Source: Candidatus Krumholzibacteriia bacterium (GTDB lineage: Bacteria; Krumholzibacteriota; Krumholzibacteriia; LZORAL124-64-63). Taken from it: 64,000 bases of DNA. This document shows, piece by piece, positions 164-19,670 of this stretch. Under the pieces are notes generated by a model. That model had not been told where the DNA came from and did no database searches. It saw only the letters and a program-made list of their open reading frames with translations. Position 1 is the first letter of the stretch. Each line of letters begins with the position of its first letter. Where the stretch lies: the NCBI GenBank assembly GCA_041390065.1, contig JAWKQQ010000008.1, positions 251,846 to 315,845 on the forward strand, written 5' to 3'. Position numbers and translations under genes: made by a program.

Positions 164-1858
164 TCAGGGCAGGTACCGGGTGGTCAGGTACGGCGCCTGC
201 GGCTTGCCGGTCACCTCGACCCAGCGGTTGTCGATCCGCGGCCGCACGGGGTCGTGCTGCTCGATGTACCACTCCACGGCCTCGGACGTGCGGATCTGCG
301 TCGGCATGACCGCCGCCGCCGGGATGGTGGTCAGGAAGTCGAGCCCGCTGTTGCCCTCGAGCAGGAAGTTGGTGCAGACCGCCTTGTAGATGCGGTCGGG
401 ATCCCAGGGCTCGCCGCCCACCAGGAGGGTGACCACGCGGTCCCAGTCGGGGCGGGTCTTGTCGAACTCCATGGTGATGCCCGAGACGCAGAGGCCGCCG
501 CTCTCGCCGGCCACCTTGCGCTCGAGGATGCGGCGCAGCATGCGTCCGTCCATCTCGACGATCACCAGCTCGTTGCCGAAGGGCAGGACGCTGAAGATGT
601 CGCCGGCGGTGATCGGACCCGCCGGCAGGTCGGCCCGCAGGCCGCCCATGTTCTGGAACGCGAAGTCGGCATCGAAGCGGGTGCGCATGGCGTCGGTCAC
701 GAGGTTGCCCATCAGGCTGTTGCCCGGACCGCCGCGGGTGAGGTTGACGGCCGCCGTGCCCACCTGGCGGGCCATCGCACGTTCCGCCTCCTCCTGATAG
801 GGCCGGATGACCTCGGCGATCTCCGGATCGGGCGGGAACTCGTCGGCGAACAGGGTGATCAGGGTGCCCTGGTCGTGGCTACGCTCCCAGCCCACCAGCT
901 GACGGGACTTCGGGTCGATCAGCAGGACGGCATGGCCGATGCTGCTGCCGTTGCCGAAGCTCTCGAAGCACAGGGTGTGGTTGACGGGATCGATCCACGG
1001 CTCCTGGTAACCGCGGTGGGTGTGGCCACCCACGGCGATGTCGATGCCAGGCACCGCGTTCACCAGCTCCATGAGGTTCGGGACGCTGCCCGAGTAGTTC
1101 GAGCCGTGGGCGCCGCCCTGCTCCAGCTCGGCGTCGGTCTCCTCGGCGCCGGCGATGGCGGCCCAGCCCTGCTGCGGGTCGTACGGCAGGCCCTCGTGGA
1201 TGGCGAGCAGGATGAGGTCGGCGCCCTGGCGCTTCAGCTCGTCGCGGTACTTCGCCACCGTTGCGGCCATGGGCAGGAAATCGAGGCCGGCGATGTTCTG
1301 CGGGAAGCTCATGTGCTTGGTGCCGGGGGTGATGATGCCGATCACGCCGATCTTGACGCCCTCGCGCTCGATCATCAGCGTCGGCACGCACCAGTCGACC
1401 ACCCTGCCGGTGTCCTTCTCCACGAGGTTGGCGGCCAACCACGGGAAACGCGACGCCCGGGCCAGGCGCTCGGTGACCTCACGGCCGAGATCGAAGTCGT
1501 GGTTGCCGGGCACGGCGAAGTCGTAGCCGATGGCGTTGTAGTAGTCGATCACCGCGCGGCCCTCGGTCTTGGTACCGATGGGCGTGCCCTGGAACATGTC
1601 GCCCACATCCATCAACAGGACCGCCTCGCCGGCGGTCGCGGCCTCGGCGCGCACGCGTTTGATGTAGGTGGCCGCGGCAGGCGCTCCCCCCAGAGGCGGC
1701 GGGAATTCGGGATTCATGAACCGGGCCGGCTCGGGCGCGATGTGGCCGTGCACGTCGTTGGTCCAGATCACGTGCAGGCGCAACGGCTCCTCGCCGGCCG
1801 CGACCAGCGTCGCCGCAAGCAGGATCAGGACCAGCGCCGATACGCGTAGGGTGTTCAT
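164..1858 (-). CDS. bifunctional 5'-nucleotidase / UDP-sugar hydrolase-like metallophosphatase, secreted
   Basis: 564-aa ORF with a signal peptide. Metallophosphoesterase motifs are present (NDVHG, GNHDFD, GHTH), followed by a 5'-nucleotidase C-terminal domain. Confidence 0.8.
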   Translation of the reverse strand: MNTLRVSALVLILLAATLVAAGEEPLRLHVIWTNDVHGHIAPEPARFMNPEFPPPLGGAPAAATYIKRVRAEAATAGEAVLLMDVGDMFQGTPIGTKTEGRAVIDYYNAIGYDFAVPGNHDFDLGREVTERLARASRFPWLAANLVEKDTGRVVDWCVPTLMIEREGVKIGVIGIITPGTKHMSFPQNIAGLDFLPMAATVAKYRDELKRQGADLILLAIHEGLPYDPQQGWAAIAGAEETDAELEQGGAHGSNYSGSVPNLMELVNAVPGIDIAVGGHTHRGYQEPWIDPVNHTLCFESFGNGSSIGHAVLLIDPKSRQLVGWERSHDQGTLITLFADEFPPDPEIAEVIRPYQEEAERAMARQVGTAAVNLTRGGPGNSLMGNLVTDAMRTRFDADFAFQNMGGLRADLPAGPITAGDIFSVLPFGNELVIVEMDGRMLRRILERKVAGESGGLCVSGITMEFDKTRPDWDRVVTLLVGGEPWDPDRIYKAVCTNFLLEGNSGLDFLTTIPAAAVMPTQIRTSEAVEWYIEQHDPVRPRIDNRWVEVTGKPQAPYLTTRYLP

Positions 1859-1879: not shown

Positions 1880-3199
1880 CTAGAATTCCTGGGTCCAGCC
1901 CAGGCCGAAGCGCAGGCGCATGTCGTCGACCCGGGACTCGGCGGGCGTCACGAACCCGTCCGGGTAGGAAAAGATATGGGGAATCCCCCGACTCTGCAGC
2001 TTGTTGAGTTCCAGCGACAGCGCCAGGCGGCCGCTCGCGATGGGCCACGCCGTCCCCAGCGAGAACACCGAATTGCCGCCCTCGGGGTCGTTGTAGCTGT
2101 CATAGCGGCGAAAGCCCACGTTCATGTCCTGGCCGCCCTGGAAGGTGTGCTGCAGGCCGAGGCGCACGTCCACGACATTCTGCAGCTCGCGCGGGGAGGT
2201 GAGCCGGCTGTCGCCGAGGCCGGGACGATCGTCCTTGAGATCCTCGTAGTCGGTGAGGACGACGTCGACGGTGAGCACGGTGCGCGGGTCGTTCCGCGGA
2301 TAGAGCGCGGCGCCGAAACGCCAGCGGGCCGGGTACTCGAGGCTGTGGCTGGCGGTGCTGGCGGCCGTGGTGTCGAACTCGGCGGTGTAGGCCGTGACGT
2401 CCAGGTCGCCGTCCACCGAGAGGGGCGTCTCGTAGGCGATGCCGAGGCTGAGGCGCTCGTTGGGATGCACCTGCACGCCCAGCGTCGCGTTGACGCCGCC
2501 GAGGGCCCACTGGCTGCGGGTGTCGTAGCTCTGGTCGCCGTCGTCGGTCCGGTTGTCGCGGGACAGCCAGTGCTCGTTGCGGTCGCCGAAGGCGTAGTGC
2601 ACGGCGGCGCCGAACGCGACGCGGTCGGCCTCGCCCGCCAGGCCCAGGCTCAGGGTGCGCAGGGTGCCCTCCACCTCGTAGGTGCGCTCCTCGAGGATGC
2701 GGTCGCGCGGATCGGAGAAGACGTCGGGGTCGCGCACTTCCTCGGTGAACTCGTAGCTGAACGGATTGCGGTCGGCCAGCGAGAGCCCGACGCCCAGCGG
2801 CAGGTCGCCGAGGTCCAGCCGTCCGGCCAGCGCGAAGCCGCCCTCGAGCCAGGTGTGCTGGTTGCTCGCGATCGACATGTCGGTGACGAAGCTGCCGAAG
2901 CTGTCGTACAGCGGCACGAAGCGCTCTTCTTCGTGGTAGGCGAGGCCGACGCCGCCGTCCAGACGCCAGGCCGTGGCCCGGGACAGGCCCGCCGGGTTCA
3001 GGATGCTGGAGAAGCCGCCGCGGTAGGCCGCGCCCCCGGAGCCGCCGAGGCCGTTGATCTCGGCCGATAGCCAGGGGCTCTGGCCGCCGTAGGCCGACTC
3101 CAGGTAGCTCACCGCGCTCGCCGGCGTTGCCACCAAACCCAGCAGCATGGCCACCGCCAGGATGGCCGTGTAGACGCTGATATTCCGTCGCGTGGTCAT
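1880..3199 (-). CDS. outer-membrane beta-barrel protein (unknown family)
   Basis: Signal peptide MTTRRNISVYTAILAVAMLLGLVATPASA. Aromatic/Gly-rich alternating pattern and a C-terminal Phe (..GWTQEF). Confidence 0.5.
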   Translation of the reverse strand: MTTRRNISVYTAILAVAMLLGLVATPASAVSYLESAYGGQSPWLSAEINGLGGSGGAAYRGGFSSILNPAGLSRATAWRLDGGVGLAYHEEERFVPLYDSFGSFVTDMSIASNQHTWLEGGFALAGRLDLGDLPLGVGLSLADRNPFSYEFTEEVRDPDVFSDPRDRILEERTYEVEGTLRTLSLGLAGEADRVAFGAAVHYAFGDRNEHWLSRDNRTDDGDQSYDTRSQWALGGVNATLGVQVHPNERLSLGIAYETPLSVDGDLDVTAYTAEFDTTAASTASHSLEYPARWRFGAALYPRNDPRTVLTVDVVLTDYEDLKDDRPGLGDSRLTSPRELQNVVDVRLGLQHTFQGGQDMNVGFRRYDSYNDPEGGNSVFSLGTAWPIASGRLALSLELNKLQSRGIPHIFSYPDGFVTPAESRVDDMRLRFGLGWTQEF

Positions 3200-3233
3200 G
3201 GTCGTCTCCTCGTCCAGCTCGGGGCCGGAAGGC

Positions 3234-5795
3234 TTAGAAGCTGTAGTCCACCTGGAGCCGGACGTACAGGTCGTCCTTGGGGACGCGGGTGGCATCGTAG
3301 TCCAGACCGTAGGCGTCGCCGTAGCGGCGCACGTCGATGTTGTCGCGCGGTTCGCTGTGGTCGCGCGTGACCTTCAGCTGCACGAGCGTGCGGTCGGAGA
3401 TGCGGCTCTCCACCTTGAACCACTGCCGCCAGCCGTTGGCGTCGAGGAGCACGAACTCGTTGCCCTCGAAGTTCCAGAAGAAGCCGTCGTAGACCGTGGC
3501 CGCGCCGGTGAGCGTGAGCCAGGGCGTGACGTTGTGCTCGTAGCGCACCTCGAAGGCGTTGCTCGGGCTGCTGGCCATGCCCACGCCGCTGGCGTCGTCG
3601 TCCGGGTTGTCGGGGCTGCCCGGGTCGGCCGGGTAGGTGAGCCGCTGCCGGGCCGGGAAGTTGACGTTGCCCGTGACGTAGGTCAGCTGCAGCCGGTTGT
3701 AGTTGCTCAGCAGGACGATGGCCTGCAGGCGCGTCTCCCAGCTGCGGTAGGTGCGCACGTCGAGGTCGTTCTGCTCGGTGCGGGCGGAGATGCGCTCGCG
3801 CACGCGGAACCGCAGGTTGAACGTCGGCTGGTACTCCAGCTTCGCCGTCCAGCGCCACTGGTCGGCGCCGTCGGCCTTGCGCTGCCACTGATCGAACTGC
3901 AGGCCGTTGATGATGAACTGACGGCTGATGCGGTAGCGCATGTCCAGGAACAGGCCCCGCTCGCCCTTGGGCTGGGGGTTGTCGGTCGCGAGCAGGCTGT
4001 ACCATTCGTCCTCGAGGCGGTAGGGGCTGTCGAGGATGGTCTGCTCGTACCTGGAGTCGTTGCTGAACGACCGCATGTACGGGTTGTCGAAGCCGATGTC
4101 GTAGTCGCGGTAGATCGCGAGCAGGTGCAGGTTGTCCCACTGGGCGAAGAGGTTGGTGATGAAGGCGTCGTGGCGATCGCCCCTCAGGAACCCCTCGCGC
4201 GGGTCCTGCAGCCAGGCGTACTCCGCCTGCCAGGACAGGTTGCCGTACACCGCCTGGCCCTCGAGGCCGTAGATGCGGCGCCAGCGGTACTCGGTGACCG
4301 TGGTGTCGCCCGGGTCGGCGAAGACGCTGGTGTAGCCGGCCGCGATCTCGCTGTCGCGGGCCAGCCAGTAGTCGGACGTCGCACCGCCGGGCAGGATCTC
4401 GTCGGGGTTGGCGTCGAAGGGCCGCGTGTAGCCCGAGTGCAGCACCGTGGCCCCGACGTAGGTGCCCGGCGCGAGCATCTGCTTGACGTTAACGCCCACC
4501 AGGTTCTCGCGGAAGGCGTTGCGGGTGATGCCGGTCTCCTGGCCCGACAGGGTCGGCAGCGCGGCCAGCTCCCGCTCGGTGAATCGGGGACGCATGCTCA
4601 CGTACCGGTTGACCGTGCCGTCATCGTTGAGGATCCCGTCGCGCCAGTCGCTGGAGCCGAAGAGCGTGAGGTGGGTGTTGCCGATGGCGCCCTCGACGGC
4701 GCCGCCGGTGAGGCGGTACTCGCGGGTGGCGCTGAGGTCGCCGCGGACGCCCAGCGGCCGCTTGTTCCAGCCGAATCCGGTCTTGCGGAAGTGGATGAAG
4801 TCGGTGTTGTCCATCACCAGGCCGGAGCCGAAGGCCACCCGGAACGAGCCCGCCACGGCCCGCTTCAGGCGCACCGGCCCCAGCTGCTGGTTCTTGACCT
4901 CGACGTAGGCCTTGGCGGTCTCGTCCCAGTCGGCCTCGCCGAGGCCGCGGTAGGTGCGGGCGCCGGCCCGCCAGTTGCCCGGCAGCGCCACGCGCAGCTT
5001 GTGGGACATGGCCGGGTTCAGGGTCTGCGGGTACTTCGGCACCAGGACGCTGGAGTTCTCGTCGTCGCCGCCGTACAGGGGCGTGTCGTAGTACCGGATC
5101 TGGTAGTCGGCCCGGACCTTGTCCGGGTCGCCGAGCTGCGCGTCGTCGTAGACCACGAAGTCGCGCAGGTTGCGGTAGGCGAAGTAGCGCAGGCCGTCGG
5201 CGCGGCGCAGCTGGCGGCTGCTGGTGATGCCCCCCATGCGTTCGCGCGCGGTCATGATCGCCGTCGCGTCGACGGGCGACACGTTCTGGAAGCTCATGAG
5301 GTCGAAGAGGTCGAGGTCGTTGACGTTGACCGGGTCCTGGAGCAGGTCCAGGTACTCGTCCACCAGGCCCTCGTTACTGCCCTCCTGTCCCAGGTAGTTG
5401 CGCACCTGGCGGTAGCTGGCGGCCATGCGGGCGACGGCGGCGTCGGCCGCGGGCGGCGGCAGCACCGCCACCAGGGGCCGCAAGGTGAGGATGGTCTGGG
5501 GCGTGACGAGGTCGATGTCGCCGAGGTCGTAGATGTCGTCGAAGTAGCGCACGTAGGTGCGGTGGTCGTAGATGGCGCGCGCCTCGGCCGCGGGGATGGG
5601 CAGGGCCAGCAGCTCTTCCAGGCTCGCCGAGTTGAGGTCGAGCTTGCCCTGGGCGAGCGTCGGGCGGCTGCCCGGATCCGCGGCGGGCGCCGCGGTCGCG
5701 GACGCCGCCGTCAGCCAGCACACCAGCACGAACAGCCCGCCGAGCAGGGCCCGCGCCGCCGGCCGGCGATGCACGAGGAGGTTACGCACGGTCAC
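3234..5795 (-). CDS. large outer-membrane beta-barrel protein with N-terminal ComEA-like helix-hairpin-helix domain
   Basis: 853 aa with a signal peptide. LDLNSASLEELLALPIPAAEARAI is an HhH motif. The long beta-rich region ends in ..QVDYSF (OMP C-terminal Phe). Confidence 0.55.
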   Translation of the reverse strand: MTVRNLLVHRRPAARALLGGLFVLVCWLTAASATAAPAADPGSRPTLAQGKLDLNSASLEELLALPIPAAEARAIYDHRTYVRYFDDIYDLGDIDLVTPQTILTLRPLVAVLPPPAADAAVARMAASYRQVRNYLGQEGSNEGLVDEYLDLLQDPVNVNDLDLFDLMSFQNVSPVDATAIMTARERMGGITSSRQLRRADGLRYFAYRNLRDFVVYDDAQLGDPDKVRADYQIRYYDTPLYGGDDENSSVLVPKYPQTLNPAMSHKLRVALPGNWRAGARTYRGLGEADWDETAKAYVEVKNQQLGPVRLKRAVAGSFRVAFGSGLVMDNTDFIHFRKTGFGWNKRPLGVRGDLSATREYRLTGGAVEGAIGNTHLTLFGSSDWRDGILNDDGTVNRYVSMRPRFTERELAALPTLSGQETGITRNAFRENLVGVNVKQMLAPGTYVGATVLHSGYTRPFDANPDEILPGGATSDYWLARDSEIAAGYTSVFADPGDTTVTEYRWRRIYGLEGQAVYGNLSWQAEYAWLQDPREGFLRGDRHDAFITNLFAQWDNLHLLAIYRDYDIGFDNPYMRSFSNDSRYEQTILDSPYRLEDEWYSLLATDNPQPKGERGLFLDMRYRISRQFIINGLQFDQWQRKADGADQWRWTAKLEYQPTFNLRFRVRERISARTEQNDLDVRTYRSWETRLQAIVLLSNYNRLQLTYVTGNVNFPARQRLTYPADPGSPDNPDDDASGVGMASSPSNAFEVRYEHNVTPWLTLTGAATVYDGFFWNFEGNEFVLLDANGWRQWFKVESRISDRTLVQLKVTRDHSEPRDNIDVRRYGDAYGLDYDATRVPKDDLYVRLQVDYSF

Positions 5796-6679
5796 TCACC
5801 GCCCCACGCCCAGGACAGGCCGAACTGGTGGGTGCTCTCGAGCACGCCGCCACCGGTGGAGAAGCCGTAGCTCAGGGCCGCCTCGCCGAAGCGGTAGCCG
5901 AAGCCCGCGGTGAGCTTGTTGGGCCTCGTGATCAGGCCGGCGCGCAGCACCAGGCCTTCGAGCACGTCGAACTCCATGCCGGCGTGCCATTGCGGATCCT
6001 CGCCGTGCACGTTCTCGAGCTCGAACACCGTGAGCACCCCCGCATACGGCTCGTAGGCCAGACCCGCCTGCAGACGGCGCGGCAGCTCCTCCTCGTCGCG
6101 GCCGATCTTCGGCGCGTTCACGTTGTGCACCAGCACGCCCATGTGGGTGCGGTCGTGCAGCGTGGCGGCGAAGCCGACGTCGAGGCCCGTGGTGAGGTCG
6201 CTGCCGGGATCCAGGCCGCTGACCGTCTCGCCGAACTCCAGGCGGTAGAGGTTCAGCCCCACGCCCAGGTTGATGCGCGAGTGGACGTCGGCGTACAGCG
6301 GCAGGCCGTAGGCCACGGTCAGCGTGCTCTCGGTCTGCAGGTCGACGTTCTGGTACTCCACGCCGTACTGCCGGAAACCCAGGCCCAGGCTGCCGGCCTC
6401 GCCGGGCAGGCGCAGGGCGGCGCCCAGGTAGTAGAGGCGGTGGAAGTCCAGGCTGTAGGGCTGGACGTAGCTGACGCCCACCTCGCCATCCGTGGCCAGG
6501 CGCGCGAGCTGCGCGGGATTGAGGGTGGCCGCGAACGTGGCGTCGTCCACGGCCACCGAGGCGTCGCCCATGGCGCGGGCCCGCGGGCTGGTCATCAGGT
6601 TCTCGAAGGCCGCCCGGGCCGGCGCCACCAGAGTGACGAGGCTCACGAGGACCACCATCGCTGCAAGTCTGCGCTTCAT
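5792..6679 (-). CDS. PorP/SprF-like (or PorV/FadL-like) outer-membrane beta-barrel protein
   Basis: 295 aa with signal peptide ..APARA. N-terminal SPRARAMGDASVAVDDATFAATLNPAQLA motif as in PorP/SprF/PorV families. It lies immediately downstream of a gene encoding a protein with a type-B-like CTD. Confidence 0.45.
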   Translation of the reverse strand: MKRRLAAMVVLVSLVTLVAPARAAFENLMTSPRARAMGDASVAVDDATFAATLNPAQLARLATDGEVGVSYVQPYSLDFHRLYYLGAALRLPGEAGSLGLGFRQYGVEYQNVDLQTESTLTVAYGLPLYADVHSRINLGVGLNLYRLEFGETVSGLDPGSDLTTGLDVGFAATLHDRTHMGVLVHNVNAPKIGRDEEELPRRLQAGLAYEPYAGVLTVFELENVHGEDPQWHAGMEFDVLEGLVLRAGLITRPNKLTAGFGYRFGEAALSYGFSTGGGVLESTHQFGLSWAWGGE

Positions 6680-6696
6680 CGTCGGTCACTCCCTCG

Positions 6697-9429
6697 CTAG
6701 TCCAGCCGCGTGGCCACGACCACGGGTGCGGTTTTCTCGGTGCGCTCGCCGGAGACCAGGTCCACGGCCTGCAGGTGCACCACGTACATGCCCGCCCGGA
6801 CCCTGGCGAAGGTCTCGTCGCGGCCGTCCCAGCTGACGATGGTGGGGAACTCGGGAATGCCCGAGACCGCCCCGTCGAAGCGGCTGTCCCACAAGGTCAC
6901 GATCACCCGACCCTCGAGGTCGATGATGCGCAGCCGGGTCTCGGAGTTCTCCTTGGTCACGATGGAGATGGGGAAGCGTTCGCCCAGCTCGGGCAGGAAC
7001 GTGCGCGCGGGCACGCTCAGGCCGATGTCGTTCACCGGCTCGAGGCCGGCCAGGAAGACGCCGGGCGTGGGGATGGCGAGCTCGAAGGTCGCCGTCCAGT
7101 CCTCGCTGGTCTCGTCGCGGCCGCCGACGCCGTTGCTGCCCACGGTGAGCTGGGTGCCCTCGTCGGCGTCGATGCGGGTGTAGGAGCGGTCGCCGGAGGA
7201 GTCCACATCGACGAACCAGTCCTGATCGGCCACCGGGGTGTCCGGCTGGTAGCCGGGCACCAGGGATTTGTCGAAGCCCACCCGGAAGTTGCCGGTCTTC
7301 TCGTTGCCGAACATGAACACGTCGATGTCGGTGACCAGCGGCTCGCCCTCGGCCCAGTAGTAGAGGATCACGGGCTCGCCGTAGAACTCCTCGAGTTCGG
7401 GGATGCCCTTGGGCAGCTGGTCGGCGCTGGTGCCGGACGAGCGGCCGGGCGTGAAGATGCTGTTGCCCGGGAGATCATCGGGCGGGTTGACGAACACCGG
7501 CCGCATGGCCGGCACGCCCTCGACCGAGAGGTCGTCGGCGTAGAGCTCGATGTCGGGCAGGCGGCTGTAGATGCGCTCGAACCAGCCGCTGCTGGCGATC
7601 GACAGCACCAGCGTCTGGCCGGCGCCGAGCACGTAGCCGTCGGGGAACCGGGCGGTGAAGTCGTTGTAGTGGCCGCCGCCGACGGTCTGCTGCGTGGGGT
7701 TGCCCGCGGTGATGGCCCAGTAGACCTGGGTGCTGAAGTTGTAGTTGATGGCGTCGGTCAGGTAGTAGTTGCTCAGATCCACAGGGAAGCTGTTGGGGTT
7801 GTGGATCTCCACGAGCTCCGGCGCGATCTGGGCCATGCTGGTGAACGGGTAGATGTTGCGGCCCGCGTTCACCTCGGTGATCAGCAGCTTGGCCGGGCCC
7901 GTGGCGGCGTCGGTGAACGTGACCGAGGCCGTGGTCGAGGGCGCGCCGTCGGGGAAGACGTCGCTCTGCGCGTTGCCGTCCACCACCTCGACGTACCAGG
8001 CCACCACCGTGCCCGCGGGCTGGCCGGGGATCTCGCCGGTGAGCGTCGCGCCGTCGGCCATGAGGCCGGCGGTCTGGAACGCGCCGCCGGCGACCGCATA
8101 GTGGAGGGTGCCGGAGAGGTCGAGGTCGACCGCGTCGACGTGCACGGTGATGAGGCAGGGCGTGCCGTTGAACGCGCTGCCGGCGGTCGCGCTGGTGATC
8201 ACGGGCGCCGGCACGCCCTCGACGACCAGGAGGCGCGGGAGGGCGTCGGCATTGGCCGGCCAGACGGCCGTGCCGCCGCCCGTGCCGGTGATGGTGGCGT
8301 ACCACGCGATCTCGACCCCGCCGGACTGGCCGGGGATGGCCGCCGACCACATGCCGGCGGTCACCTGGCTGCCCGCCGCCTGCTGCCATGAACCGCCGTC
8401 GATCCGGAAGTGGACGGCCATGGCCGCGAGCGGGTCGTAGCTCAACGCCGTGAGCGTGACGTCGGTCGCCAGACCGGCATACGCGTCGCCGACCGAGCCG
8501 GCGGTCACGATCGGCGCCGGCGCCAGGGGCGTCGCCGCCGGGCCGGCCGGGGTCTGGTCCGAGACCACGTCCCAGCTGCCCGCGAGGTCCTCGCTGGTCT
8601 CGTCGTGACCGGTGGCGCCGTTGCCGCCGCTGGCGTCCTCGCTGGTCTCCACGGCACCCGTGCGCACGAGCGCCTGGCCGAACGTGGGAACCGTGCCGGC
8701 GGAGATCTGGCTGGCCGCCGGGGTGTCGGCCAGGTAGGTCGAGGGGGTCGCGCCGGCATCCGGGCCGTCGACGCTCACGTCGGTCTTGTCGACGCGCACG
8801 TTGGTGGAGGTTCCGTAGATCAGGTAGTCGAGGTCCTGCACCAGGTCGCTCGCACCGTCCCAGCGGTAGAGGACGATGCTGTCCGAGGCCCCCGACCCGC
8901 TGGCCAGGGCCGGCGTGTTCGAGCCGGTCGAGCCGAGGCCCGCGCCGATGCTGCCCGGGAAGGCCTCCCGCATCTCCGCCACCGCGTCGGGCGCGATGCC
9001 GTCCTCGAAGAGCTCGAGGTCGGGCAGGTAGCCGTAGGCCTGCTGGAACTGCGTGCTGCCGCTGAGGGAGATCACCAGGGTGTCGCCCGCGGCGAGGCTC
9101 AGGCCGACCGGGAAGCGCGCATGCACGTTGCCGGAGGTGCCGCCGCCCTGACCTGCGCCCGTCACGATGTTCCAGTAGAGCTTGCCGAGCGCCACGTCCT
9201 GCGCCGTCGACAGGTAGACGTCGTCGAGGGCGATCGCCGCACCCGTGGGGTTGACGATCTCGATGAACGGGCTGCCGAAGGTGGACACGGGGTTGCGGGT
9301 GACGACGACCACCTCGCTCAGGAGCAGATGGTCGGCCTCCTGGGCCAGCAAGGCGGCCGGCAGGAGCAGCAGGGCCAGCAGGGCCAGCGGCCTCCGGCAC
9401 CGACGCTCGGGACTCCGGTCACGGGTCAT
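6697..9429 (-). CDS. secreted lamin-tail-domain (LTD) repeat protein with T9SS type-B-like C-terminal domain
   Basis: Start chosen at MTRDRSPERRC..LLLLPAALLAQ (signal peptide). Two LTD motifs (LLLSEVVVVTRNP..FIEIVNPTGAAIALDDVYL and LLITEVNAG..ELVEIHNPNSFPVDLSNYYL). The C-terminus (..SWDGRDETFARVRAGMYVVHL..) resembles the gliding/T9SS type-B CTD. Confidence 0.6.
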   Translation of the reverse strand: MTRDRSPERRCRRPLALLALLLLPAALLAQEADHLLLSEVVVVTRNPVSTFGSPFIEIVNPTGAAIALDDVYLSTAQDVALGKLYWNIVTGAGQGGGTSGNVHARFPVGLSLAAGDTLVISLSGSTQFQQAYGYLPDLELFEDGIAPDAVAEMREAFPGSIGAGLGSTGSNTPALASGSGASDSIVLYRWDGASDLVQDLDYLIYGTSTNVRVDKTDVSVDGPDAGATPSTYLADTPAASQISAGTVPTFGQALVRTGAVETSEDASGGNGATGHDETSEDLAGSWDVVSDQTPAGPAATPLAPAPIVTAGSVGDAYAGLATDVTLTALSYDPLAAMAVHFRIDGGSWQQAAGSQVTAGMWSAAIPGQSGGVEIAWYATITGTGGGTAVWPANADALPRLLVVEGVPAPVITSATAGSAFNGTPCLITVHVDAVDLDLSGTLHYAVAGGAFQTAGLMADGATLTGEIPGQPAGTVVAWYVEVVDGNAQSDVFPDGAPSTTASVTFTDAATGPAKLLITEVNAGRNIYPFTSMAQIAPELVEIHNPNSFPVDLSNYYLTDAINYNFSTQVYWAITAGNPTQQTVGGGHYNDFTARFPDGYVLGAGQTLVLSIASSGWFERIYSRLPDIELYADDLSVEGVPAMRPVFVNPPDDLPGNSIFTPGRSSGTSADQLPKGIPELEEFYGEPVILYYWAEGEPLVTDIDVFMFGNEKTGNFRVGFDKSLVPGYQPDTPVADQDWFVDVDSSGDRSYTRIDADEGTQLTVGSNGVGGRDETSEDWTATFELAIPTPGVFLAGLEPVNDIGLSVPARTFLPELGERFPISIVTKENSETRLRIIDLEGRVIVTLWDSRFDGAVSGIPEFPTIVSWDGRDETFARVRAGMYVVHLQAVDLVSGERTEKTAPVVVATRLD

Positions 9430-9736: not shown

Positions 9737-11212
9737 ATGCGCGACCCCTTCGCCGCCCTGACCCGCAAGCAGCGGCTACAAGCCTGGCGGCTGACGGCCG
9801 ACCGCCTGGTGCGGCGCCCCTGGCGCCCGGGCCGCCTCGTGCGCCGGCATGAAGGCCCCGCCAACCTGGTGCTCGTGGGGATCGACACCCTGCGCCGCGA
9901 CCACGTCACTCCCGAGCTCATGCCCAATCTGCTCGCCCGGGCGTCCGCCGGATTCGATTTCATGGACACCTCGGCGCCTGCCCCGTGGACCCTGCCCTCG
10001 TTCGCGGGCGCGCTCACCGGCCTGATGCCCGCGCAGCACGGGGCCCGCCTCACGGGCGACGTGCGCAATATGGACCGCCAGCCCCCCGGCCGCCTGCGCA
10101 GCGATGTGACCACGCTCGCCGGCCACCTCGCCCGGCAGGGTTACCGGACCTGCGCCGTCTACGCCAACCAGTTCTTCGCCTTCGGCCTGGCCGAGAGCTT
10201 CGGCGAGCACGTCTACCGCAACCTCCGGGCCGACGCCCTGCTGGACGTGGCGCTGGAGTGGATCCGCCGCCACGCCGACGGCCCCTTCTGCTGCTTCGTG
10301 CTCCTGAACGACCCCCACGAGCCCACCACGCCCCGGCCGGCGCTGCTCGAGCCGGAGCTGGCCCGGCTCGACGTGCCGCCGCCGCATGCACGCGAGTTGC
10401 GCGCCCTCGCGGGCTGGGGCGACCCCGCCCGGCCGCAGGCTCACCTCGGCCTCTGCGGCTGGCCGTTGCCCGAAGCGGCCCGGCGGGCGCGCAAGCTCAA
10501 GGCGGCCATCTACCGGGCGGTCGTCCACGAGGTGGACCTGGCGCTCGGGCGTTTCCTCGGCCGCCTCGACGCCTGGGGCCTCACCGACCACACGCTTTGC
10601 AGCGTCTTCAGCGATCACGGCGAGGAGTTCTGCGACCACGCCGCCGAGGCCCACGCCTGGGACCACGATCCCCGGCGGGTGCGCGGCATCGGTCATGGCC
10701 ACACCCAGTTCCAGGAGCTGCTCGGCGTACCGTGGTTGGGCTGGGGGGCGGGTGTGCCGCAACGCGGGCGGGTGGCGCGGCCGGTCTCGCTGCTCGACCT
10801 CACGCCCACGCTGGTCGACTGGCTCGGCCTCGCACCGTTCCCGCTGCCGCCGCTGCCGCTGGCCGCCCTGGGCGGCCGTTCCCTCGCCGCCGGGACGGAC
10901 ATCGACGACGATCGTCTGCTCCTGGCCGAGGCCATCGCCTACGGCCCGGACGTGGTGGCCCTCCGGCGTGGCCGCTGGAAGCTGATCGCGCACCGCGACG
11001 GCCGGCCGCTGGGCCTCTACGACCTCGCCGCCGACCCGCGCGAACGCGACGACCGCCAGCAGGCCGAGCCGGAGGTCCTGCGATCGCTCCGGCAGGACCT
11101 CGCGGTCTGGCGCGAGGCCGCGCCGTCGTTCGACGGACACGGCCGCCGCGGCTGGGACTCGCTCACCAGCGAGGTCCGCCAGCGGCTGAAGGACCTCGGC
11201 TACGGCGAGTGA
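9737..11212 (+). CDS. sulfatase / alkaline-phosphatase superfamily protein
   Basis: Start at ATG 9737 inside the longer ORF 9245..11212. LVLVGIDTLRRDHV metal-site motif. Contains TGLMPAQHG and the DPHEP region. Confidence 0.65.
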   Translation: MRDPFAALTRKQRLQAWRLTADRLVRRPWRPGRLVRRHEGPANLVLVGIDTLRRDHVTPELMPNLLARASAGFDFMDTSAPAPWTLPSFAGALTGLMPAQHGARLTGDVRNMDRQPPGRLRSDVTTLAGHLARQGYRTCAVYANQFFAFGLAESFGEHVYRNLRADALLDVALEWIRRHADGPFCCFVLLNDPHEPTTPRPALLEPELARLDVPPPHARELRALAGWGDPARPQAHLGLCGWPLPEAARRARKLKAAIYRAVVHEVDLALGRFLGRLDAWGLTDHTLCSVFSDHGEEFCDHAAEAHAWDHDPRRVRGIGHGHTQFQELLGVPWLGWGAGVPQRGRVARPVSLLDLTPTLVDWLGLAPFPLPPLPLAALGGRSLAAGTDIDDDRLLLAEAIAYGPDVVALRRGRWKLIAHRDGRPLGLYDLAADPRERDDRQQAEPEVLRSLRQDLAVWREAAPSFDGHGRRGWDSLTSEVRQRLKDLGYGE

Positions 11213-12402: not shown

Positions 12403-12870
12403 TCAGCGCAACCCCAGCGCCCCGATGATCCTGGCGACCACGCGGTCGTGGTCGAACGCCAGCGGCGGCAGAGCGTCGACGGGGAACCAGCGGGCCGTCA
12501 CGGCGTCGTCGCCGCCCATCACCGCCGGCAGCTCGCCCACCAGTTCGGCCACGTAGACCACCGACACGGTATGGCCCCGGGGATCGCGGTCGGGATCGCC
12601 GAAGACGTGGAACTGCCGGAACGGCAAGCCGCCGAGGCCCGTCTCCTCCGCGACCTCGCGGCCCACGGCCTGGTCGGGATCCTCGCCGTACTCGACGAAG
12701 CCGCCGGGCAGGGCCCAGTGGCCCTGGTACGGCTCGCGTCCGCGCTCGATGAGCAGGACGTGGGAGCGGAAGCCGCCGCCGGCCCGCGGTCGGCGCACCA
12801 GGACGGCGCCGTCGACGGTCAGGGCCGGGCTCCGGAACCGTGGGTGCAGGCAGCCGTCGTCGCCGTTCAC
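12403..12870 (-). CDS. NUDIX hydrolase
   Basis: NUDIX box GGFVEYGEDPDQAVGREVAEETGL. Confidence 0.7.
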   Translation of the reverse strand: MNGDDGCLHPRFRSPALTVDGAVLVRRPRAGGGFRSHVLLIERGREPYQGHWALPGGFVEYGEDPDQAVGREVAEETGLGGLPFRQFHVFGDPDRDPRGHTVSVVYVAELVGELPAVMGGDDAVTARWFPVDALPPLAFDHDRVVARIIGALGLR

Positions 12871-12874
12871 GGGG

Positions 12875-13219
12875 CTATTCCGGCTTGAAGGACGCCATGG
12901 CGGCCTTGCAGTCCTCGTACGTCTCGAAGACCAGCTTGAGCTGGGTGACGTTGAGGATGTTGTCGATCCGCGCCGACACCGAGCAGATCTTCATCACGCC
13001 GCCGTTCTTCTTCAGCGTGTGGAAGGCCGAGACCAGGATACCCAGGCCCGTGGAGTTGATCCAGGTGACCTTGGACATGTTCAACAGGATGTCCACGTAG
13101 CCGTCGTTGATGAGCGACTTGATCTCGCTGTGGAACTTCTCGTAGTCGGGCCCGCCCATGATCTTGCCCGACAGGTTGAGGACCATGACCTCGCCCTCGG
13201 GCGCCTGCTGGATGTTCAT
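12875..13219 (-). CDS. STAS-domain protein (anti-sigma-factor antagonist SpoIIAA-like)
   Basis: Start at MNIQQ (ATG 13219, GGAGAA RBS). 114 aa, rich in K/I/N. Local GC is visibly lower than the surroundings. Confidence 0.7.
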   Translation of the reverse strand: MNIQQAPEGEVMVLNLSGKIMGGPDYEKFHSEIKSLINDGYVDILLNMSKVTWINSTGLGILVSAFHTLKKNGGVMKICSVSARIDNILNVTQLKLVFETYEDCKAAMASFKPE

Positions 13220-13386
13220 CGTGTTCTCCCATGTGCTGACGGGGCCGTCCCTGGAGGGCGGCCCCGGGGGTCCGTGGCATCCTGACACAATGCCTGTTCC
13301 CGGCGGCCGAGGCAAGCGCTCGCTGGACCCCGACCGGGCCCGTCTGGTACATTCGGCGCGTCCGCCCCTCGTCAGGAGCACGGCGC

Positions 13387-14811
13387 ATGAGTCCTGTCCG
13401 GCCACCCGTCCTCGCCGGGACCTGGTACCCGGCCGACCCCGAGCGGTTGCGCGCCCGGGTGCGGGAGTACCTCGCCGCGGCCGACCCCGCCCGCCGGCCG
13501 CCGGGGCGGCCGACCGTCGTGCTGTCGCCGCACGCCGGCTATCGCTATTCCGGCCCCACCGCCGGCAAGGTGCTGGGACTCCTGCGCGGCCTGGAGTTCC
13601 GGGCCGTGTTCATCCTCGCGCCCAGCCATCGGGCCCACCTCGTAAGACCCGCCCTGCCGGCCGCGACCGGGTTCGCCACTCCGCTCGGCACCGTCCCGGT
13701 GGCCGGGGAGATCGTGGCCCGCCTGGCGGCCACCGGCGACTTCACGGTCGACGAGGCCGCCCACCGCGACGAGCACGCCGTCGAGATCCAGCTGCCGCTG
13801 CTGCAGGAGGCCCTGCCGGCGGGCACGCCCATCGTGCCCATCCTGGTGCCGCCCCTCGCGCCGGAGCTGCGCCGGGCCGCCGCCCGCGCCCTCGACCCCT
13901 ACCGCGACGGCGACCACCTGCTGCTGGTGTCGAGCGACCTCACCCACTACGGTCGAGCGTACGGCTACGTTCCGTTCACCGAGCACGTCGGCGAGCGCCT
14001 CGAGGAGCTCGACACGGGCGCCCTGTTGCGTATCCTCGCCCACGACTCCGAGGGCCTGCTCCGCTACGGACAGCAGACCGGCATCACGATGTGCGGCCTG
14101 GAGGCGGCCGCCCTGGCCCTGGACAGCCGCGAGCCCGGCCCCCACCACGCCGAGCTCGTCGACTACACCCGCAGCGCCGACGGCGACGGTGACCCGGACC
14201 TTTCGGTCAGCTACGCCGGGGTGCTCATCTGCCGCGACCCGGCGATCGCCGGGCTCAGCGACGCCGATCGACGGTTCCTCCTGACCCTGGCCCGGCGTTG
14301 CCTCGAGGCCGCCGTCCGCGGCGAGCCCGCCCCCACCCCCGCCGCGCTGGCCGCGGAGCTGGGCCAGGAGCTGTCGCCGGCGCTGAACGAGCGGCGGGGC
14401 GCGTTCGTCACCCTCCGGAGCGGTGGCCTTCTCCGGGGCTGCATCGGCTACATCGAGGGCCACGCGCCCCTGGCCGAGGCCGTGGCCGCCAACGCCCGCA
14501 GCGCCGCCCTGGACGATCCCCGGTTTCCGCCCGTGCGCCCGCAGGAGCTGGCCGGTCTGCACATCGAGGTGTCCGCACTGACCCGCCTGCGGCCCGTCGC
14601 AGGACCCGAGGCCATCACGGTGGGTCGGCACGGGGTGCTGCTGGAGAAGGCCGGCCGCCGGGCGGTGTTCCTGCCCCAGGTCGCACCGGAGCTGGGCTGG
14701 GACCTGCCGACGATGCTCGGCGAGCTGGCCCTGAAGGCCGGCCTCGGCCCTGATGATTGGCGGTCCGGCTGCCGCTTCCAGGTCTTCGAGGCCGAGATCT
14801 GCGAGGAATGA
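13387..14811 (+). CDS. MEMO1-family / AMMECR1-domain fusion protein (AmmeMemoRadiSam proteins B+A)
   Basis: N-terminal MEMO1-like (PVLAGTWYPADP..SPHAGYRYSG..SSDLTHYG). C-terminal AMMECR1 (RGAFVTLRSGGLLRGCIGYIEG..PRFPPV..FLPQVAPELGW). Confidence 0.75.
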   Translation: MSPVRPPVLAGTWYPADPERLRARVREYLAAADPARRPPGRPTVVLSPHAGYRYSGPTAGKVLGLLRGLEFRAVFILAPSHRAHLVRPALPAATGFATPLGTVPVAGEIVARLAATGDFTVDEAAHRDEHAVEIQLPLLQEALPAGTPIVPILVPPLAPELRRAAARALDPYRDGDHLLLVSSDLTHYGRAYGYVPFTEHVGERLEELDTGALLRILAHDSEGLLRYGQQTGITMCGLEAAALALDSREPGPHHAELVDYTRSADGDGDPDLSVSYAGVLICRDPAIAGLSDADRRFLLTLARRCLEAAVRGEPAPTPAALAAELGQELSPALNERRGAFVTLRSGGLLRGCIGYIEGHAPLAEAVAANARSAALDDPRFPPVRPQELAGLHIEVSALTRLRPVAGPEAITVGRHGVLLEKAGRRAVFLPQVAPELGWDLPTMLGELALKAGLGPDDWRSGCRFQVFEAEICEE

Positions 14812-14837
14812 CCGGCGGCGTCCGCCAGGAAAACCTG

Positions 14838-14866
14838 TTGTTCAGTCCGAGTCACGGGACTATTCT
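14838..14866 (+). promoter_or_regulatory. putative sigma70-like promoter upstream of spt (-35 TTGTTC, 17 nt spacer, -10 TATTCT)
   Basis: Hexamers read directly from the sequence about 55 nt upstream of ATG 14923. The segment is locally AT-richer. Confidence 0.3.
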
Positions 14867-14922
14867 ATCGGCTTACCTGCCGTCGCCCCCGGCGGTCCAC
14901 CTCTGCCACGATACCGGAGATC

Positions 14923-16101
14923 ATGGGTCTTCTCGACAAGGTTCACCAGTTTCAGACGGCGCGCCAGCTCATGGCCGCCGGTCTGTACAATTACTTCCGG
15001 CCCATCGAGACCGCGCAGGAGAACACGGTCCGCTACAACGGCCGTGAAGTCATCATGCTCGGCAGCAACAACTACCTGGGCCTCACCAATCACCCCAAGG
15101 TGAAGGAGGCCGCCAAGGCGGCCCTCGACAAGTACGGCAGCGGCTGCGCCGGCTCGCGCTTCCTCAACGGCACCCTCGACGTGCACGTGCAGCTCGAGCG
15201 CAAGCTGGCCGACCTGGTGGGCAAGGAGGAGGCGCTGGTGTTCTCCACCGGCTTCTTCGCCAACCTGGGCACCATCAGCACCATGGTCGGCCGCAACGAG
15301 ACCGCGATCGTCGACCGCACCGACCACGCGTCGATCATCGACGGCTGCCGCATGAGCTTCGGAAACGTGCGCAAGTACAAGCACCAGGACATGGAACACC
15401 TCGACTACTGCCTCGAGCAGGAGCGGGACGTCAACAAGCTGGTGATCGTCGACGGCGTGTTCTCCATGGAAGGCGACGTGGCCAGGTTGCCGGAGATCGT
15501 GCCGCTGGCGAAGAAGCACGACGCCCTGGTGATGGTGGACGACGCCCACGGCGTGGGCGTGATGGGCAAGCACGGCCGCGGCACCTGCGACCACTTCGGG
15601 GTGACCGACGACGTGCACCTCATCGTGGGCACGTTCAGCAAGAGCCTGGCCTCGGTCGGCGGTTTCGTGGCCTCCGACGCCGACACCATCCACTACATCA
15701 AGCACCTGGCGCGGGTGATGATCTTCTCGGCGAGCCCCCCGCCCGCGTCGGTGGCCTCGGTGTCGGCCGCCATCGACGTCATGCTGGAAGAGGAATGGCG
15801 TCACGAGCAGCTCTGGCGCAACACGCGGATCCTCATGGAGCGCCTCCGGCAGGCCGGCTTCGACACCGGCCCGAGCGAGACCCCCATCATCCCCGTGGTG
15901 GTGGGCGGCGACGTGGAGACCTACCGCATGTGCGTCCGCTGCTGGGAAGAGGGCGTGTTCGTCAACCCGATCGTGTCGCCCGCCGTCGAGCCGGGCAACG
16001 CGCTGCTGCGGCTGTCGCTCATGGCCACCCACACCGAGGACGAGATCCACAAGGCCATGGACATCATGGTCAAGGTGGGCAAGGAAGTGGGCGTGATCTA
16101 G
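14923..16101 (+). CDS. spt: serine palmitoyltransferase (alpha-oxoamine synthase family, PLP-dependent)
   Basis: 392 aa. GTFSKSLASVGGFVAS PLP-lysine motif and ..MIFSASPPPASVASVSAAIDVM.. closely resemble bacterial SPT. Homologs with other functions in the same family (BioF, Kbl, CapB) are not fully excluded. Confidence 0.75.
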   Translation: MGLLDKVHQFQTARQLMAAGLYNYFRPIETAQENTVRYNGREVIMLGSNNYLGLTNHPKVKEAAKAALDKYGSGCAGSRFLNGTLDVHVQLERKLADLVGKEEALVFSTGFFANLGTISTMVGRNETAIVDRTDHASIIDGCRMSFGNVRKYKHQDMEHLDYCLEQERDVNKLVIVDGVFSMEGDVARLPEIVPLAKKHDALVMVDDAHGVGVMGKHGRGTCDHFGVTDDVHLIVGTFSKSLASVGGFVASDADTIHYIKHLARVMIFSASPPPASVASVSAAIDVMLEEEWRHEQLWRNTRILMERLRQAGFDTGPSETPIIPVVVGGDVETYRMCVRCWEEGVFVNPIVSPAVEPGNALLRLSLMATHTEDEIHKAMDIMVKVGKEVGVI

Positions 16102-16123
16102 CGACTCCGCGGCCGGTTCCGGT

Positions 16124-16156
16124 GGGGGCGGCTCGCTGGCCGCCCCCTTTCTTCTT
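16124..16156 (+). terminator. intrinsic terminator-like hairpin after spt
   Basis: GGGGGCGGC-tcgctg-GCCGCCCCC: perfect 9-bp GC stem, followed by TTTCTTCTT. Confidence 0.5.
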
Positions 16157-16286
16157 CATCCCGGCGCCGACGGCCAGGCGGCGAAGGCGCCGGGACGGCC
16201 GCCGCGGCCACCCGCCAACCCGACTCTTGCCATCGCGGCCCGTTGCAGGCACCCTAGCGGCATCACCCCCTCAGGAGGCTTCGCCG

Positions 16287-17411
16287 TTGAGCGTCACCGT
16301 CACCCCCGTCCGCGACAAGCGCGACCTGGCCCAGTTCCTGCGGATCCCCTACCGGATCTACGGCAAGAACCACCCCCAGTACGTGCATCCGCTGATCGCC
16401 CAGATGAAGGCCTTCCTCGACCCGAAGAAGAACCCGTTCTTCCGCCACGCCGACACGCAGCTCTGGGTGGCCCGCGACGGCGCCATCCCCGTCGGCCGCA
16501 TCGCCGCCTGCGTCGACGCGAGCAGCAACGAATACCACGACGAGCTCGTCGGCTTCTTCGGGTTCTACGAGGCCCCCGACGACCCCGAGGTGGCCCGGGC
16601 CCTGCTCACGACCGCCGCGAACTGGATCAAGGACCAGGGCATGGCCACCATGCGCGGCCCCGGGTGCTTCACCACCAACCACGACTACCTCGGCCTGTTG
16701 ATCGACGGTTACGAGCGTCGGCCCGTGCTCGGCATGCCGTGGCAGCCGCCCTACTACCGGCCGCAGTTCGAGCAGTTCGGCCTGGTCAAGGCCAAGGACC
16801 TGCTGGCCTGGGACTTCCGCGTCGAGGGCAACCGCATGCCCGAACGCATGGCGCAGTTCGCCGAACGCTTCGAGAGCCGCAAGGACTTCACCATCCGTGG
16901 GTTCCGCATGGACCGCTTCTGGGAAGAGGTGGAGATCGTGCGCGGCCTCTATTACGACGCCTGGAAGGACAACTGGGGCTTCGTCCCCCTCGACGAGGAG
17001 GAGTTCCGGCACCTCGCGAAGGACATGAAGAGCATGGTCGACCCGGGCCTGTTGCTGATCGCCGAACGCGACGGCGAGCCCATCGGCTTCTCCATGTCGA
17101 CGCAGGATTTCAACGAGGCGCTCAAGCCCCTGAACGGCGCCCTGCTCCCCTTCGGCTGGCTCCGGTTCCTGCTGGCCAAGCGCCACATCAAGGGCTGCCG
17201 GACCCTGCTGCTGGGCGTCAAGCCGGAGCACCGCCAGCGCGGGGTCGACACGCTGCTGGTCTACGAGAGCATCAGGTACGGCCTGACGCGGGGCTACGAC
17301 CACAGCGAGGCGTCCTGGATCCTCGAGGACAACGTGGCCATGAACCGCGCGCTCGAGAAGCAGGGCGCCAAGGTCAAGAACATCTACCGGATCTTCGAGA
17401 AGGACGTGTGA
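16287..17411 (+). CDS. GNAT-fold acyltransferase (candidate bacterial ceramide synthase, bCerS-like)
   Basis: TTG start preceded by AGGAGG. GNAT motif A LGVKPEHRQRGVDTLL. Stop overlaps the next start (TGATG). Confidence 0.55.
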   Translation: MSVTVTPVRDKRDLAQFLRIPYRIYGKNHPQYVHPLIAQMKAFLDPKKNPFFRHADTQLWVARDGAIPVGRIAACVDASSNEYHDELVGFFGFYEAPDDPEVARALLTTAANWIKDQGMATMRGPGCFTTNHDYLGLLIDGYERRPVLGMPWQPPYYRPQFEQFGLVKAKDLLAWDFRVEGNRMPERMAQFAERFESRKDFTIRGFRMDRFWEEVEIVRGLYYDAWKDNWGFVPLDEEEFRHLAKDMKSMVDPGLLLIAERDGEPIGFSMSTQDFNEALKPLNGALLPFGWLRFLLAKRHIKGCRTLLLGVKPEHRQRGVDTLLVYESIRYGLTRGYDHSEASWILEDNVAMNRALEKQGAKVKNIYRIFEKDV

Positions 17412-19643: not shown

Positions 19644-19670
19644 GTCAGATCCCTCCGGAACGGCCTCCGG

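Follow-up and report, generated by a model that had tools for sequence, protein, structure and literature searches.

Introduction

Two classes of C-terminal domain (CTD) are familiar from the type 9 secretion system (T9SS): type-A domains are cleaved, and type-B domains pair with barrels of the PorP/SprF family. A further arrangement is found in PorU and PorZ, which keep their CTDs and use them to dock on PorV and PorQ. The subject of this report is a five-gene operon at the start of a 64,000-nucleotide stretch of DNA, called here the window, from a Candidatus Krumholzibacteriia metagenome-assembled genome (MAG) (GenBank assembly GCA_041390065.1, contig JAWKQQ010000008.1, positions 251,846 to 315,845). 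The first gene encodes a secreted protein, the cargo, that ends in a special CTD, and the second a 295-residue outer-membrane barrel. A first-pass annotation had seen in this pair a type-B cargo and its PorP/SprF partner, after the manner of SprB and SprF in the Bacteroidota, and in the whole string of genes a dedicated secretion/attachment module. The evidence given below points elsewhere: the locus defines a third subfamily of T9SS CTD, which is strongly conserved, is strictly paired, by the order of the genes, with a PorV-like barrel of its own, and lies outside the Bacteroidota.

The passenger and the other products of the operon recall systems of a different kind. Lamin-tail domains (LTDs) accompany metallo-β-lactamase (MBL), EEP and calcineurin-like phosphoesterase hydrolases; the nuclease activity of ExeM is enhanced by its LTD, and a membrane-targeting role has been proposed for the domain (PMC6085458). 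BamG, although a barrel of the FadL type, is not a transporter; on BamA it forms the pillar to which a surface lipoprotein docks (PMC12611786). Riemerella anatipestifer, a member of the Bacteroidota, relies for its transformation on three proteins, a DNA binder at the surface, a barrel in the outer membrane and a helix-hairpin-helix (HhH) protein in the periplasm, and DUF5689 is a domain of the surface protein that this transformation requires (PMC8459023). Literature searches, which covered T9SS in Krumholzibacteriota and Eisenbacteria and outer-membrane DNA systems with LTD or ComEA, returned nothing directly on the present locus, its CTD subfamily or an HhH-fused barrel, and nothing on T9SS in Krumholzibacteriota. 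Database annotation of the family has so far been confined to "hypothetical", "lamin tail domain" or "helix-hairpin-helix domain".

A tight operon of five genes

The five genes are co-directional on the minus strand. They are listed here, with their notable parts, by position in the window.

6697-9429, minus strand: cargo, 910 residues, with a Sec signal peptide, a first LTD, two Ig-like repeats, a second LTD and the special CTD
7591-7902, minus strand: second LTD (residues 510-613 of the cargo), the best-scoring LTD stretch in Pfam
6700-7014, minus strand: special CTD (residues 806-910 of the cargo), a divergent member of the T9SS-CTD/FlgD_ig superfamily
5792-6679, minus strand: PorV/PorQ-family 14-strand barrel of 295 residues with an N-terminal helical hatch (NF033709 match, AF2 model, Foldseek)
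3234-5795, minus strand: outer-membrane protein of 853 residues: signal peptide, two ComEA-type HhH modules, then a predicted barrel of some 24 strands (HHH_3, AF2 model)
5151-5648, minus strand: the two HhH modules, at about residues 50-110 and 160-215 of the 853-residue protein (Pfam, PDB profile search)
1880-3202, minus strand: second FadL-superfamily barrel, 440 residues, ending ...WTQEF, nearest to the BamG and PorV models
164-1858, minus strand: UshA-type 5'-nucleotidase/metallophosphoesterase, 564 residues (5_nucleotid_C, Metallophos, UshA)

Open reading frames (ORFs) were chosen by their third-position GC content, and values of 0.91-0.98 (in a window of about 70% GC) back the reading frames. 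The genes follow each other closely: 17 nt lie between the first two, the second and third overlap at stop and start, and gaps of 31 nt and 21 nt come after. Spacing as tight as this argues that the products are co-expressed as a complex. The first of these gaps, from the cargo's stop codon to the start of the 295-residue ORF (CGAGGGAGTGACCGACG), holds a Shine-Dalgarno-like GAGGGAG. The barrel had been correctly placed close downstream of the cargo, but the spacer is 17 nt and not the 18 nt first given. The overlap that follows is between the GTG start of the 853-residue ORF and the TGA stop of the 295-residue barrel gene. A scan for promoters and terminators gave no informative signal in sequence of 70% GC.

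The sequence features that the first-pass annotation described are all indeed present: a 910-residue secreted protein (Sec-type signal peptide MTRDRSPERRCRRPLALLALLLLPAALLAQ) with two LTDs (Pfam LTD, E = 4e-13, in two stretches), its ending (...SWDGRDETF..AGMYVVHL...APVVVATRLD), the N-terminal motif ARAMGDASVAVDDATFAATLNPAQLA of the 295-residue ORF and, in the same co-directional string, two further barrels and a nucleotidase at the positions listed above. At NCBI, the cargo and the 295-residue barrel correspond with 100% identity to R3D98_07605 and R3D98_07600, both called hypothetical, from a Candidatus Krumholzibacteriia MAG.

A C-terminal domain apart from types A and B

In its general form the cargo resembles a T9SS substrate: it has a Sec signal peptide and, at the extreme C-terminus, a domain within the usual size of about 80-110 residues (residues 806-910, ending at the stop codon). 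Scanned directly against Pfam and NCBIfam, the final 105 residues of the cargo from the window contain no recognized domain; the matches to Endostatin and an RbmA-like domain obtained in that scan were judged spurious. The family signal emerged only when the CTDs of 45 orthologs were scanned individually. All 45 then matched the extreme C-terminal end of the PorU sortase model (best E = 5.9e-6), and 24 matched the corresponding end of the PorZ model (7.8e-5). The type-A model TIGR04183 was found in 34 (best E = 3.2e-4, counting E-values up to 1), FlgD_ig in 32 (2.1e-4), CHU_C in 27 (3.5e-4, all under the gathering score) and Por_Secre_tail in 22 (4.5e-3). None of PorU, TIGR04183, FlgD_ig and CHU_C reaches its curated cut-off on the ortholog CTDs, and the window CTD scores 13 bits against TIGR04183 (E = 0.077), below the curated 23 bits. 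When the profile of the special CTD was aligned by hhalign with that of the ordinary PNPFNP-type CTDs of the window and phylum, however, the two agreed over a core of 62 columns with a probability of 97.9% (E = 4.9e-13). A PDB profile search with the CTD returned nothing significant (SoxZ 0.07, FlgD 0.26-0.44).

The type-B assignment does not survive these comparisons: TIGR04131 has no match in the window protein and matches just one of the 45 ortholog CTDs, with E = 0.19. By its profiles, the special CTD is a divergent sibling of the type-A CTD/FlgD_ig fold, with an N-terminal motif of its own and a conserved C-terminal extension, and relatedness to FlgD_ig and type-A CTDs implies that it is probably an Ig-like beta-sandwich of seven strands. 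Its consensus is VPARTFLPxxGExFPIxFxSxxxSETRLRIFDLEGRLVxTLxDSRFDG...WDGRDxTFExVxAGMYVVHLSVVDxxTGxExTxTAPVVVATRLS. It shares with type-A CTDs a common core, including the D-x-x-G-R-x-V, W-D/N-G and G-x-Y motifs, but it begins with PARTFLPxxGExFP in place of PNPFNP and adds the extension TGxExTxTAPVVVATRLS. It is also far more conserved than an ordinary sorting tag, being the most conserved region of the cargo, with a mean column identity of 58% in the family alignment.

Searched with the CTD profile, the full library also yielded the domain as the tail of LTD/OB proteins from lineages of low GC. The same profile matches 6-21 tandem internal domains in giant proteins of 1300-7800 residues (P0361-P0366, P0372 and others), whose hosts, to judge by the protein sequences, are seemingly of low GC. 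These FlgD_ig-like repeats are superfamily relatives and were excluded from the special CTD class; since giant proteins carry them in tandem, the fold evidently also serves as a repeat unit and not only as a tail.

A PorV-like barrel beside the special CTD

The 295-residue barrel matches PorV_fam (NF033709) with E = 8.7e-19 and 68.2 bits (the curated cut-off is 90), over residues 25-291 and positions 6-325 of the 326 in the model. The narrower PorV, PorQ and PorV2 models match it more weakly (for the PorV equivalog, 23 bits against 250). Among 47 orthologs of the barrel, PorV_fam is found in every one (best E = 1.2e-22). The AlphaFold2 (AF2) model (pLDDT 88.4, pTM 0.83) has 14 strands preceded by N-terminal helices, and the structures closest to it by Foldseek are the PorV chains of two Flavobacterium translocon structures, 8gl6_F (TM-score 0.75) and 6h3i_F (0.73), both with an rmsd of about 4 Å; 8GL6 is the state with the CTD of RemA bound. 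FadL comes next (TM-score 0.64, rmsd about 8 Å), and PorV is the only PDB sequence match. The barrel is best placed in the PorV/PorQ lineage of T9SS and not among the FadL transporters. A FadL/TodX identity had been named at the outset as one outcome that would refute the first-pass interpretation, and here the result speaks in favor of the latter: against the PorV_fam match, Toluene_X (PF03349) reaches an E-value of just 0.053 (12.4 bits, with a cut-off of 29.7), and the best structures are those of PorV.

The PorP/SprF label fares less well. The window barrel has no PorP/SprF match in Pfam (PF11751) at E<=10 nor in NCBIfam (TIGR03519) at E<=0.1, and TIGR03519 is found in only 7 of the 47 orthologs (best E = 1.4e-7). 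Might the pair nevertheless be of the SprB/SprF type, a type-B adhesin exported by T9SS with a PorP/SprF barrel, for attachment or gliding? The cargo gene does always lie next to the barrel gene, CHU_C is weakly present in 27 of 45 CTDs and TIGR03519 in 7 of 47 barrels, and there is a GldF/GldG-like gene in the window. To set against this, the type-B model is as good as absent from the CTDs, the barrel goes with PorV by both profile and structure, the passenger domains are of a type found with nucleases rather than the repeats of an SprB-like adhesin, and the scheme has no place for an invariant HhH barrel and a nucleotidase. We regard it as very improbable. A role in adhesion or gliding in the SprB-SprF sense is likewise unlikely, as the conserved partners point to the handling of nucleic acid.

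The constancy of the partners was assessed in 80 species-level loci, one genome per species, from Krumholzibacteriota and two Eisenbacteria (some of the NCBI labels are obviously loose). Each count considers only those loci with enough flanking sequence.

Special CTD adjoining the barrel gene: 74 of 75 loci, with a median distance to the barrel start of 21 nt
853-residue barrel next: 69 of 69 loci
440-residue barrel next: 58 of 58 loci
5'-nucleotidase next: 49 of 49 loci
Sulfatase-like gene upstream and divergent: 46 of 57 loci

This arrangement is far beyond chance. Two unrelated lineages, of 41% and 33% GC, have the same order of PorV-like barrel, HhH barrel and second barrel, with an identity of 36-38% in the PorV-like barrel. 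What the analysis shows directly is the domain identities, the folds and the synteny. In the locus of 33% GC (L088), the operon is broken up at 12461-21988: inserted between its genes are two toxin-antitoxin pairs of the HEPN/nucleotidyltransferase kind, a ParE toxin and a restriction-modification pair. In that of 41% GC (L087), the product of the gene divergent to the cargo (2142-3851, minus strand) combines DUF5689 with a CTD of type A.

The pairing goes with the CTD and not with what precedes it. Two LTD paralogs that end in an ordinary PNPFNP type-A CTD (P0226 and P0191) lie in unrelated neighborhoods with no barrel operon beside them. Because the pairing is kept across different passengers and distant lineages, the special CTD and the PorV-like barrel can be said to travel together independently of the passenger, as gene order directly shows, and this conservation, along with the invariant gene adjacency, suggests that the CTD is a retained docking domain. 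The first-pass annotation therefore grasped the right concept, a cargo with a special CTD beside its cognate barrel, while naming the wrong families for both, type B and PorP/SprF.

The passenger

The cargo family has 336 members in the database, 780-1520 residues in length. In the window protein, the LTDs are joined by a weak CBM_56-like match, and no enzymatic domain, EEP or other nuclease domain included, was found by Pfam or NCBIfam. In five loci (L066, L074, L076, L081 and L082), the LTD passenger is replaced by Big_5 Ig domains that alternate with OB-fold-like repeats, the CTD being kept, and the cargo of a sixth (L083) has LTD and OB repeats together. These repeats weakly match the ExeM_NucH model, in its N-terminal part (1.5e-6), and stress_OB_fold (1.7e-5).

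One MAG (binchicken_co65_219) contains three copies of the operon (L038, L049 and L050), which could be true paralogs or the product of a mixed bin. The cargo of L050 is about 2200 residues long (an ORF of 2220 codons) and has at least five LTDs.

Other members of the operon

The 853-residue protein begins with two stretches matching HHH_3 (PF12836; 7.8e-12, 45.6 bits with a cut-off of 27), and a PDB profile search relates it to the HhH region of EEPD1 (9.8e-12) and to ComEA (7e-7 and 4e-6). Since the HhH modules precede the first strand of the barrel, they are presumably periplasmic. The AF2 model (pLDDT 74.8, pTM 0.71) is of a barrel of about 24 strands, the protein ending in ...VDYSF. A structure search found no specific solved relative of the barrel (TM-score <=0.28). 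Identity across orthologs is 53-84%.

One might think instead of a self-contained device for secretion and attachment, in which the 24-strand barrel would be the translocon, the PorV-like barrel the receptor or shuttle for the CTD, the second barrel an accessory, and the nucleotidase a linked but unrelated enzyme of the periplasm. The translational coupling of the PorV-like gene to that of the large barrel fits this idea, as does the lack of any known relative of the latter. In the solved translocons (8GL6 and 6H3I), moreover, PorV sits on SprA and binds the CTD of the cargo, and FadL-type barrels are adaptors of BamA in Bacteroidota (PMC12611786). However, a protein translocon has no obvious use for conserved HhH modules of the ComEA type, every one of 49 loci encodes the nucleotidase and 11 have a ComEC-type MBL protein inserted as well, and at about 24 strands the barrel is far from the size of SprA, which has 36. 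A device of this sort thus strikes us as quite unlikely.

The 440-residue barrel matches BamG (NF053685) at 8.2e-10 and 38.3 bits, well short of the equivalog cut-off of 250. All 15 of its orthologs examined match BamG (best 2.8e-24), and 12 of the 15 match PorV_fam, all far under the equivalog cut-offs. The matches support relatedness to BamG at the level of the family, and no closer.

The fifth gene encodes a 5'-nucleotidase, by matches to 5_nucleotid_C (2.7e-34; 119 bits with a cut-off of 23.6), Metallophos (4.4e-09; 37.5 with a cut-off of 21.5) and UshA (1.5e-52). The enzyme has a signal peptide and neither lipobox nor CTD, so it is presumed to be periplasmic. In 11 of 49 loci, an extra gene between the second barrel and the nucleotidase encodes a lipoprotein with the MBL domain of ComEC/Rec2 (8.5e-23 and 1e-19); tblastn found no copy of it in the 64-kb window.

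ComEA-type modules and, in some loci, the MBL domain of ComEC call to mind natural transformation. Perhaps the operon provides the outer-membrane stage of a pilus-independent uptake that hands DNA to ComEC in the inner membrane for recombination, nutrition not being the primary purpose. The three-part system of Riemerella anatipestifer (PMC8459023) offers a precedent. Yet the constant enzyme of the operon is a 5'-nucleotidase, which would destroy the incoming material, and in the loci examined no comEC, dprA or comF is linked to the operon. We think this explanation rather unlikely.

Upstream and divergent from the cargo lies the following gene.

9737-11212, plus strand: sulfatase/alkaline-phosphatase-superfamily protein (Sulfatase, Phosphodiest)

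Its product (Sulfatase 2.5e-22, Phosphodiest 8e-8) has an Arg-rich N-terminus. It was considered as a possible exported phosphodiesterase of the module and set aside, as no ortholog examined has a signal peptide. The protein is probably cytoplasmic, and its membership in the module is doubtful.

T9SS and other genes in the window

Among the window proteins scanned (64 kb of the genome), none matched a model of a T9SS core component. Four secreted proteins have PNPFNP-type CTDs: an FG-GAP protein, an Omp28-like protein and two tandem GH32-like enzymes (32910-36560, minus strand; 36732-38621, plus; 44538-46379, minus; and 46448-48367, minus). Three of them pass the TIGR04183 cut-off (23.8-27.2 bits). 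Because the window has such proteins with type-A CTDs, there is indirect evidence, from sequence, that the organism uses T9SS. The GldF/GldG-like gene, at 38716-43351 (minus strand), encodes a GldF-like ABC-2 permease fused to a GldG-like auxiliary protein (TIGR03518, 1e-31; PF09822) and is followed by one for a DUF4340 protein. A gene on the minus strand (30416-32923) overlaps the end of that for the FG-GAP CTD protein and encodes a histidine kinase with an FG-GAP/propeller-like sensor, suggesting that the two form a linked pair of sensor and surface protein.

Elsewhere in the window, a single ORF (13387-14811, plus strand) encodes a Memo-like domain fused to an AMMECR1 domain, and 24513-27848 (minus strand) contains genes for the beta and alpha/biotin-carrier subunits of a Na+-translocating oxaloacetate decarboxylase. 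The minus strand of 50000-64000 is occupied by a run of short ORFs (GC 0.64-0.67); the one that was checked (62401-63300) encodes ribosomal protein uL2, and the run is probably a ribosomal-protein operon.

How the operon may work

The reading we tentatively favor, with a little less than an even chance of being right, is that the operon encodes a multi-barrel outer-membrane module that handles extracellular nucleic acid. A nucleic-acid role is favored because of the LTD and OB passengers, the ComEA-type HhH modules, the ComEC-type MBL domain and the universal nucleotidase. For docking, DNA binding, channel function and topology, we infer the following scheme. The cargo, as its signal peptide directly implies, crosses the inner membrane by Sec; it would then cross the outer membrane by a T9SS-type route, which is suggested by the fold family of its CTD and by the ordinary type-A CTD cargos of the same genome. 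The special CTD would not be a disposable sorting tag; it would be retained and bind the co-encoded PorV-like 14-strand barrel. Retention on that barrel may be considered by itself, and as such it is somewhat likelier than the scheme as a whole. The passenger, comprising LTD and/or OB-fold modules with no enzyme domain, would be displayed at the surface, where it may capture DNA or RNA. The polymer could then enter by the wide 853-residue barrel, whose periplasmic HhH modules would bind it and bias its movement inward, as ComEA does. The second, BamG/PorV-like barrel may add one more subunit, with a structural or an adaptor role. Once inside the periplasm, the polymer would be cut and then dephosphorylated, the 5'-nucleotidase yielding nucleosides and phosphate. 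The cutting enzyme could be the ComEC-type MBL lipoprotein of the operon in some lineages and, for the window organism, an enzyme encoded elsewhere in the genome.

Several observations weigh against this scheme. The barrel that would receive the CTD scores below the curated PorV_fam cut-off (68 bits instead of 90), and the proposed docking is argued from gene order alone. The OB-fold assignment is based on weak matches, of which no single stretch passes by itself. No biochemical role has been proven for the LTD, and ExeM can dispense with its LTD for DNA degradation in vivo (PMC6085458). The first hairpin of each HhH module, read from the sequence, has LPIP or VSPVD where the canonical motif would be Gly-hydrophobic-Gly. 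Some HHH_3 domains, for example that of PsbU, are not known to bind DNA. That the 853-residue protein is a channel is a guess from the size of a modeled barrel with no characterized relative. Finally, no nuclease is encoded in the window operon, and none was found within the 64 kb.

Some of these points would sit as well with a general structure of the surface or envelope: a layer or adhesin of LTD and Ig domains mounted on PorV/BamG-type barrels, the HhH modules making contacts with protein and the nucleotidase salvaging nucleotides or UDP-sugars. The operon is universal, is usually single per genome (counting species-level loci) and lies beside housekeeping genes, as might be expected of such a structure, for which the proposed membrane-targeting role of the LTD, the degenerate first hairpins and the lack of a nuclease in the window operon can also be cited. 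But four independent types of domain associated with nucleic acid (LTD, the OB fold of the ExeM/NucH type, the HhH of ComEA and the MBL of ComEC) co-occur here along with a nucleotidase, and it is an OB-fold passenger, specifically, for which the LTD passenger is exchanged. This reading is on the unlikely side.

Nucleic-acid handling might be taken a step further. Perhaps Krumholzibacteriota, Eisenbacteria and other lineages possess in this operon an undescribed machine that imports DNA through the outer membrane independently of a pilus, by means of a barrel of about 24 strands with a ComEA-type ratchet, two adaptors of the PorV/BamG type on its flanks and a surface binder of nucleic acid held by a third class of CTD. 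So specific a proposal is possible but doubtful. If the nucleic-acid reading is true, the operon is a candidate route for DNA to cross the outer membrane with no dedicated pilus, and it would bear on how abundant uncultured phyla of sediment and sludge obtain phosphorus and nucleosides from extracellular DNA. The pairing of CTD and barrel, for its part, supports the view that FadL-type barrels (PorV, PorQ and BamG) are general docking platforms for surface proteins in the superphylum.

Comparison with known systems

The proposed pairing of the special CTD with its barrel would parallel those of the PorU and PorZ CTDs with PorV and PorQ and of type-B CTDs with PorP/SprF. The 295-residue protein resembles PorV in its predicted fold, a FadL-type barrel of 14 strands that has a hatch at the N-terminus, and its partner ends in a presumably Ig-like domain that aligns with the C-terminal part of the models for PorU and PorZ. 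It is about 100 residues shorter than PorV, however, its host belongs to the Krumholzibacteriota and not the Bacteroidota, and it is encoded beside the one dedicated cargo that it may bind, as sequence and gene order would have it, whereas PorV serves many.

With SprB-SprF, the locus shares a genetic logic, a cargo with a CTD other than type A immediately beside its own outer-membrane barrel. It differs in that the type-B model misses the CTD, the barrel is PorV-like, and passenger and partners are related to nucleic acid, not to gliding. The 440-residue barrel matches the model of BamG, but its gene lies in the operon and not beside bamA.

The set of modules found in the operon (LTD, OB fold, HhH, MBL and calcineurin-type 5'-nucleotidase) is the same as that distributed over the nucleases ExeM/NucH/Xds and YhcR, ComEA and the MBL domain of ComEC. 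Unlike in those nucleases, the modules are on separate genes and are tied to outer-membrane barrels, and with no EEP or SNase catalytic domain, the operon has nothing that qualifies as ExeM/NucH (NF033681). ComEA is soluble or membrane-anchored in the periplasm, whereas the HhH modules of the operon are the N-terminus of a barrel.

The system of Riemerella (the DUF5689 protein, RA0C_RS04915 and RA0C_RS02645) has the same three parts as are proposed here, with no sequence relationship detected between them. There, the barrel RA0C_RS04915 is a relative of TonB-dependent receptors, with RA0C_RS02645 as a separate HhH protein; in the operon, barrel and HhH modules are fused in one protein, and a PorV-like protein is added as the putative anchor.

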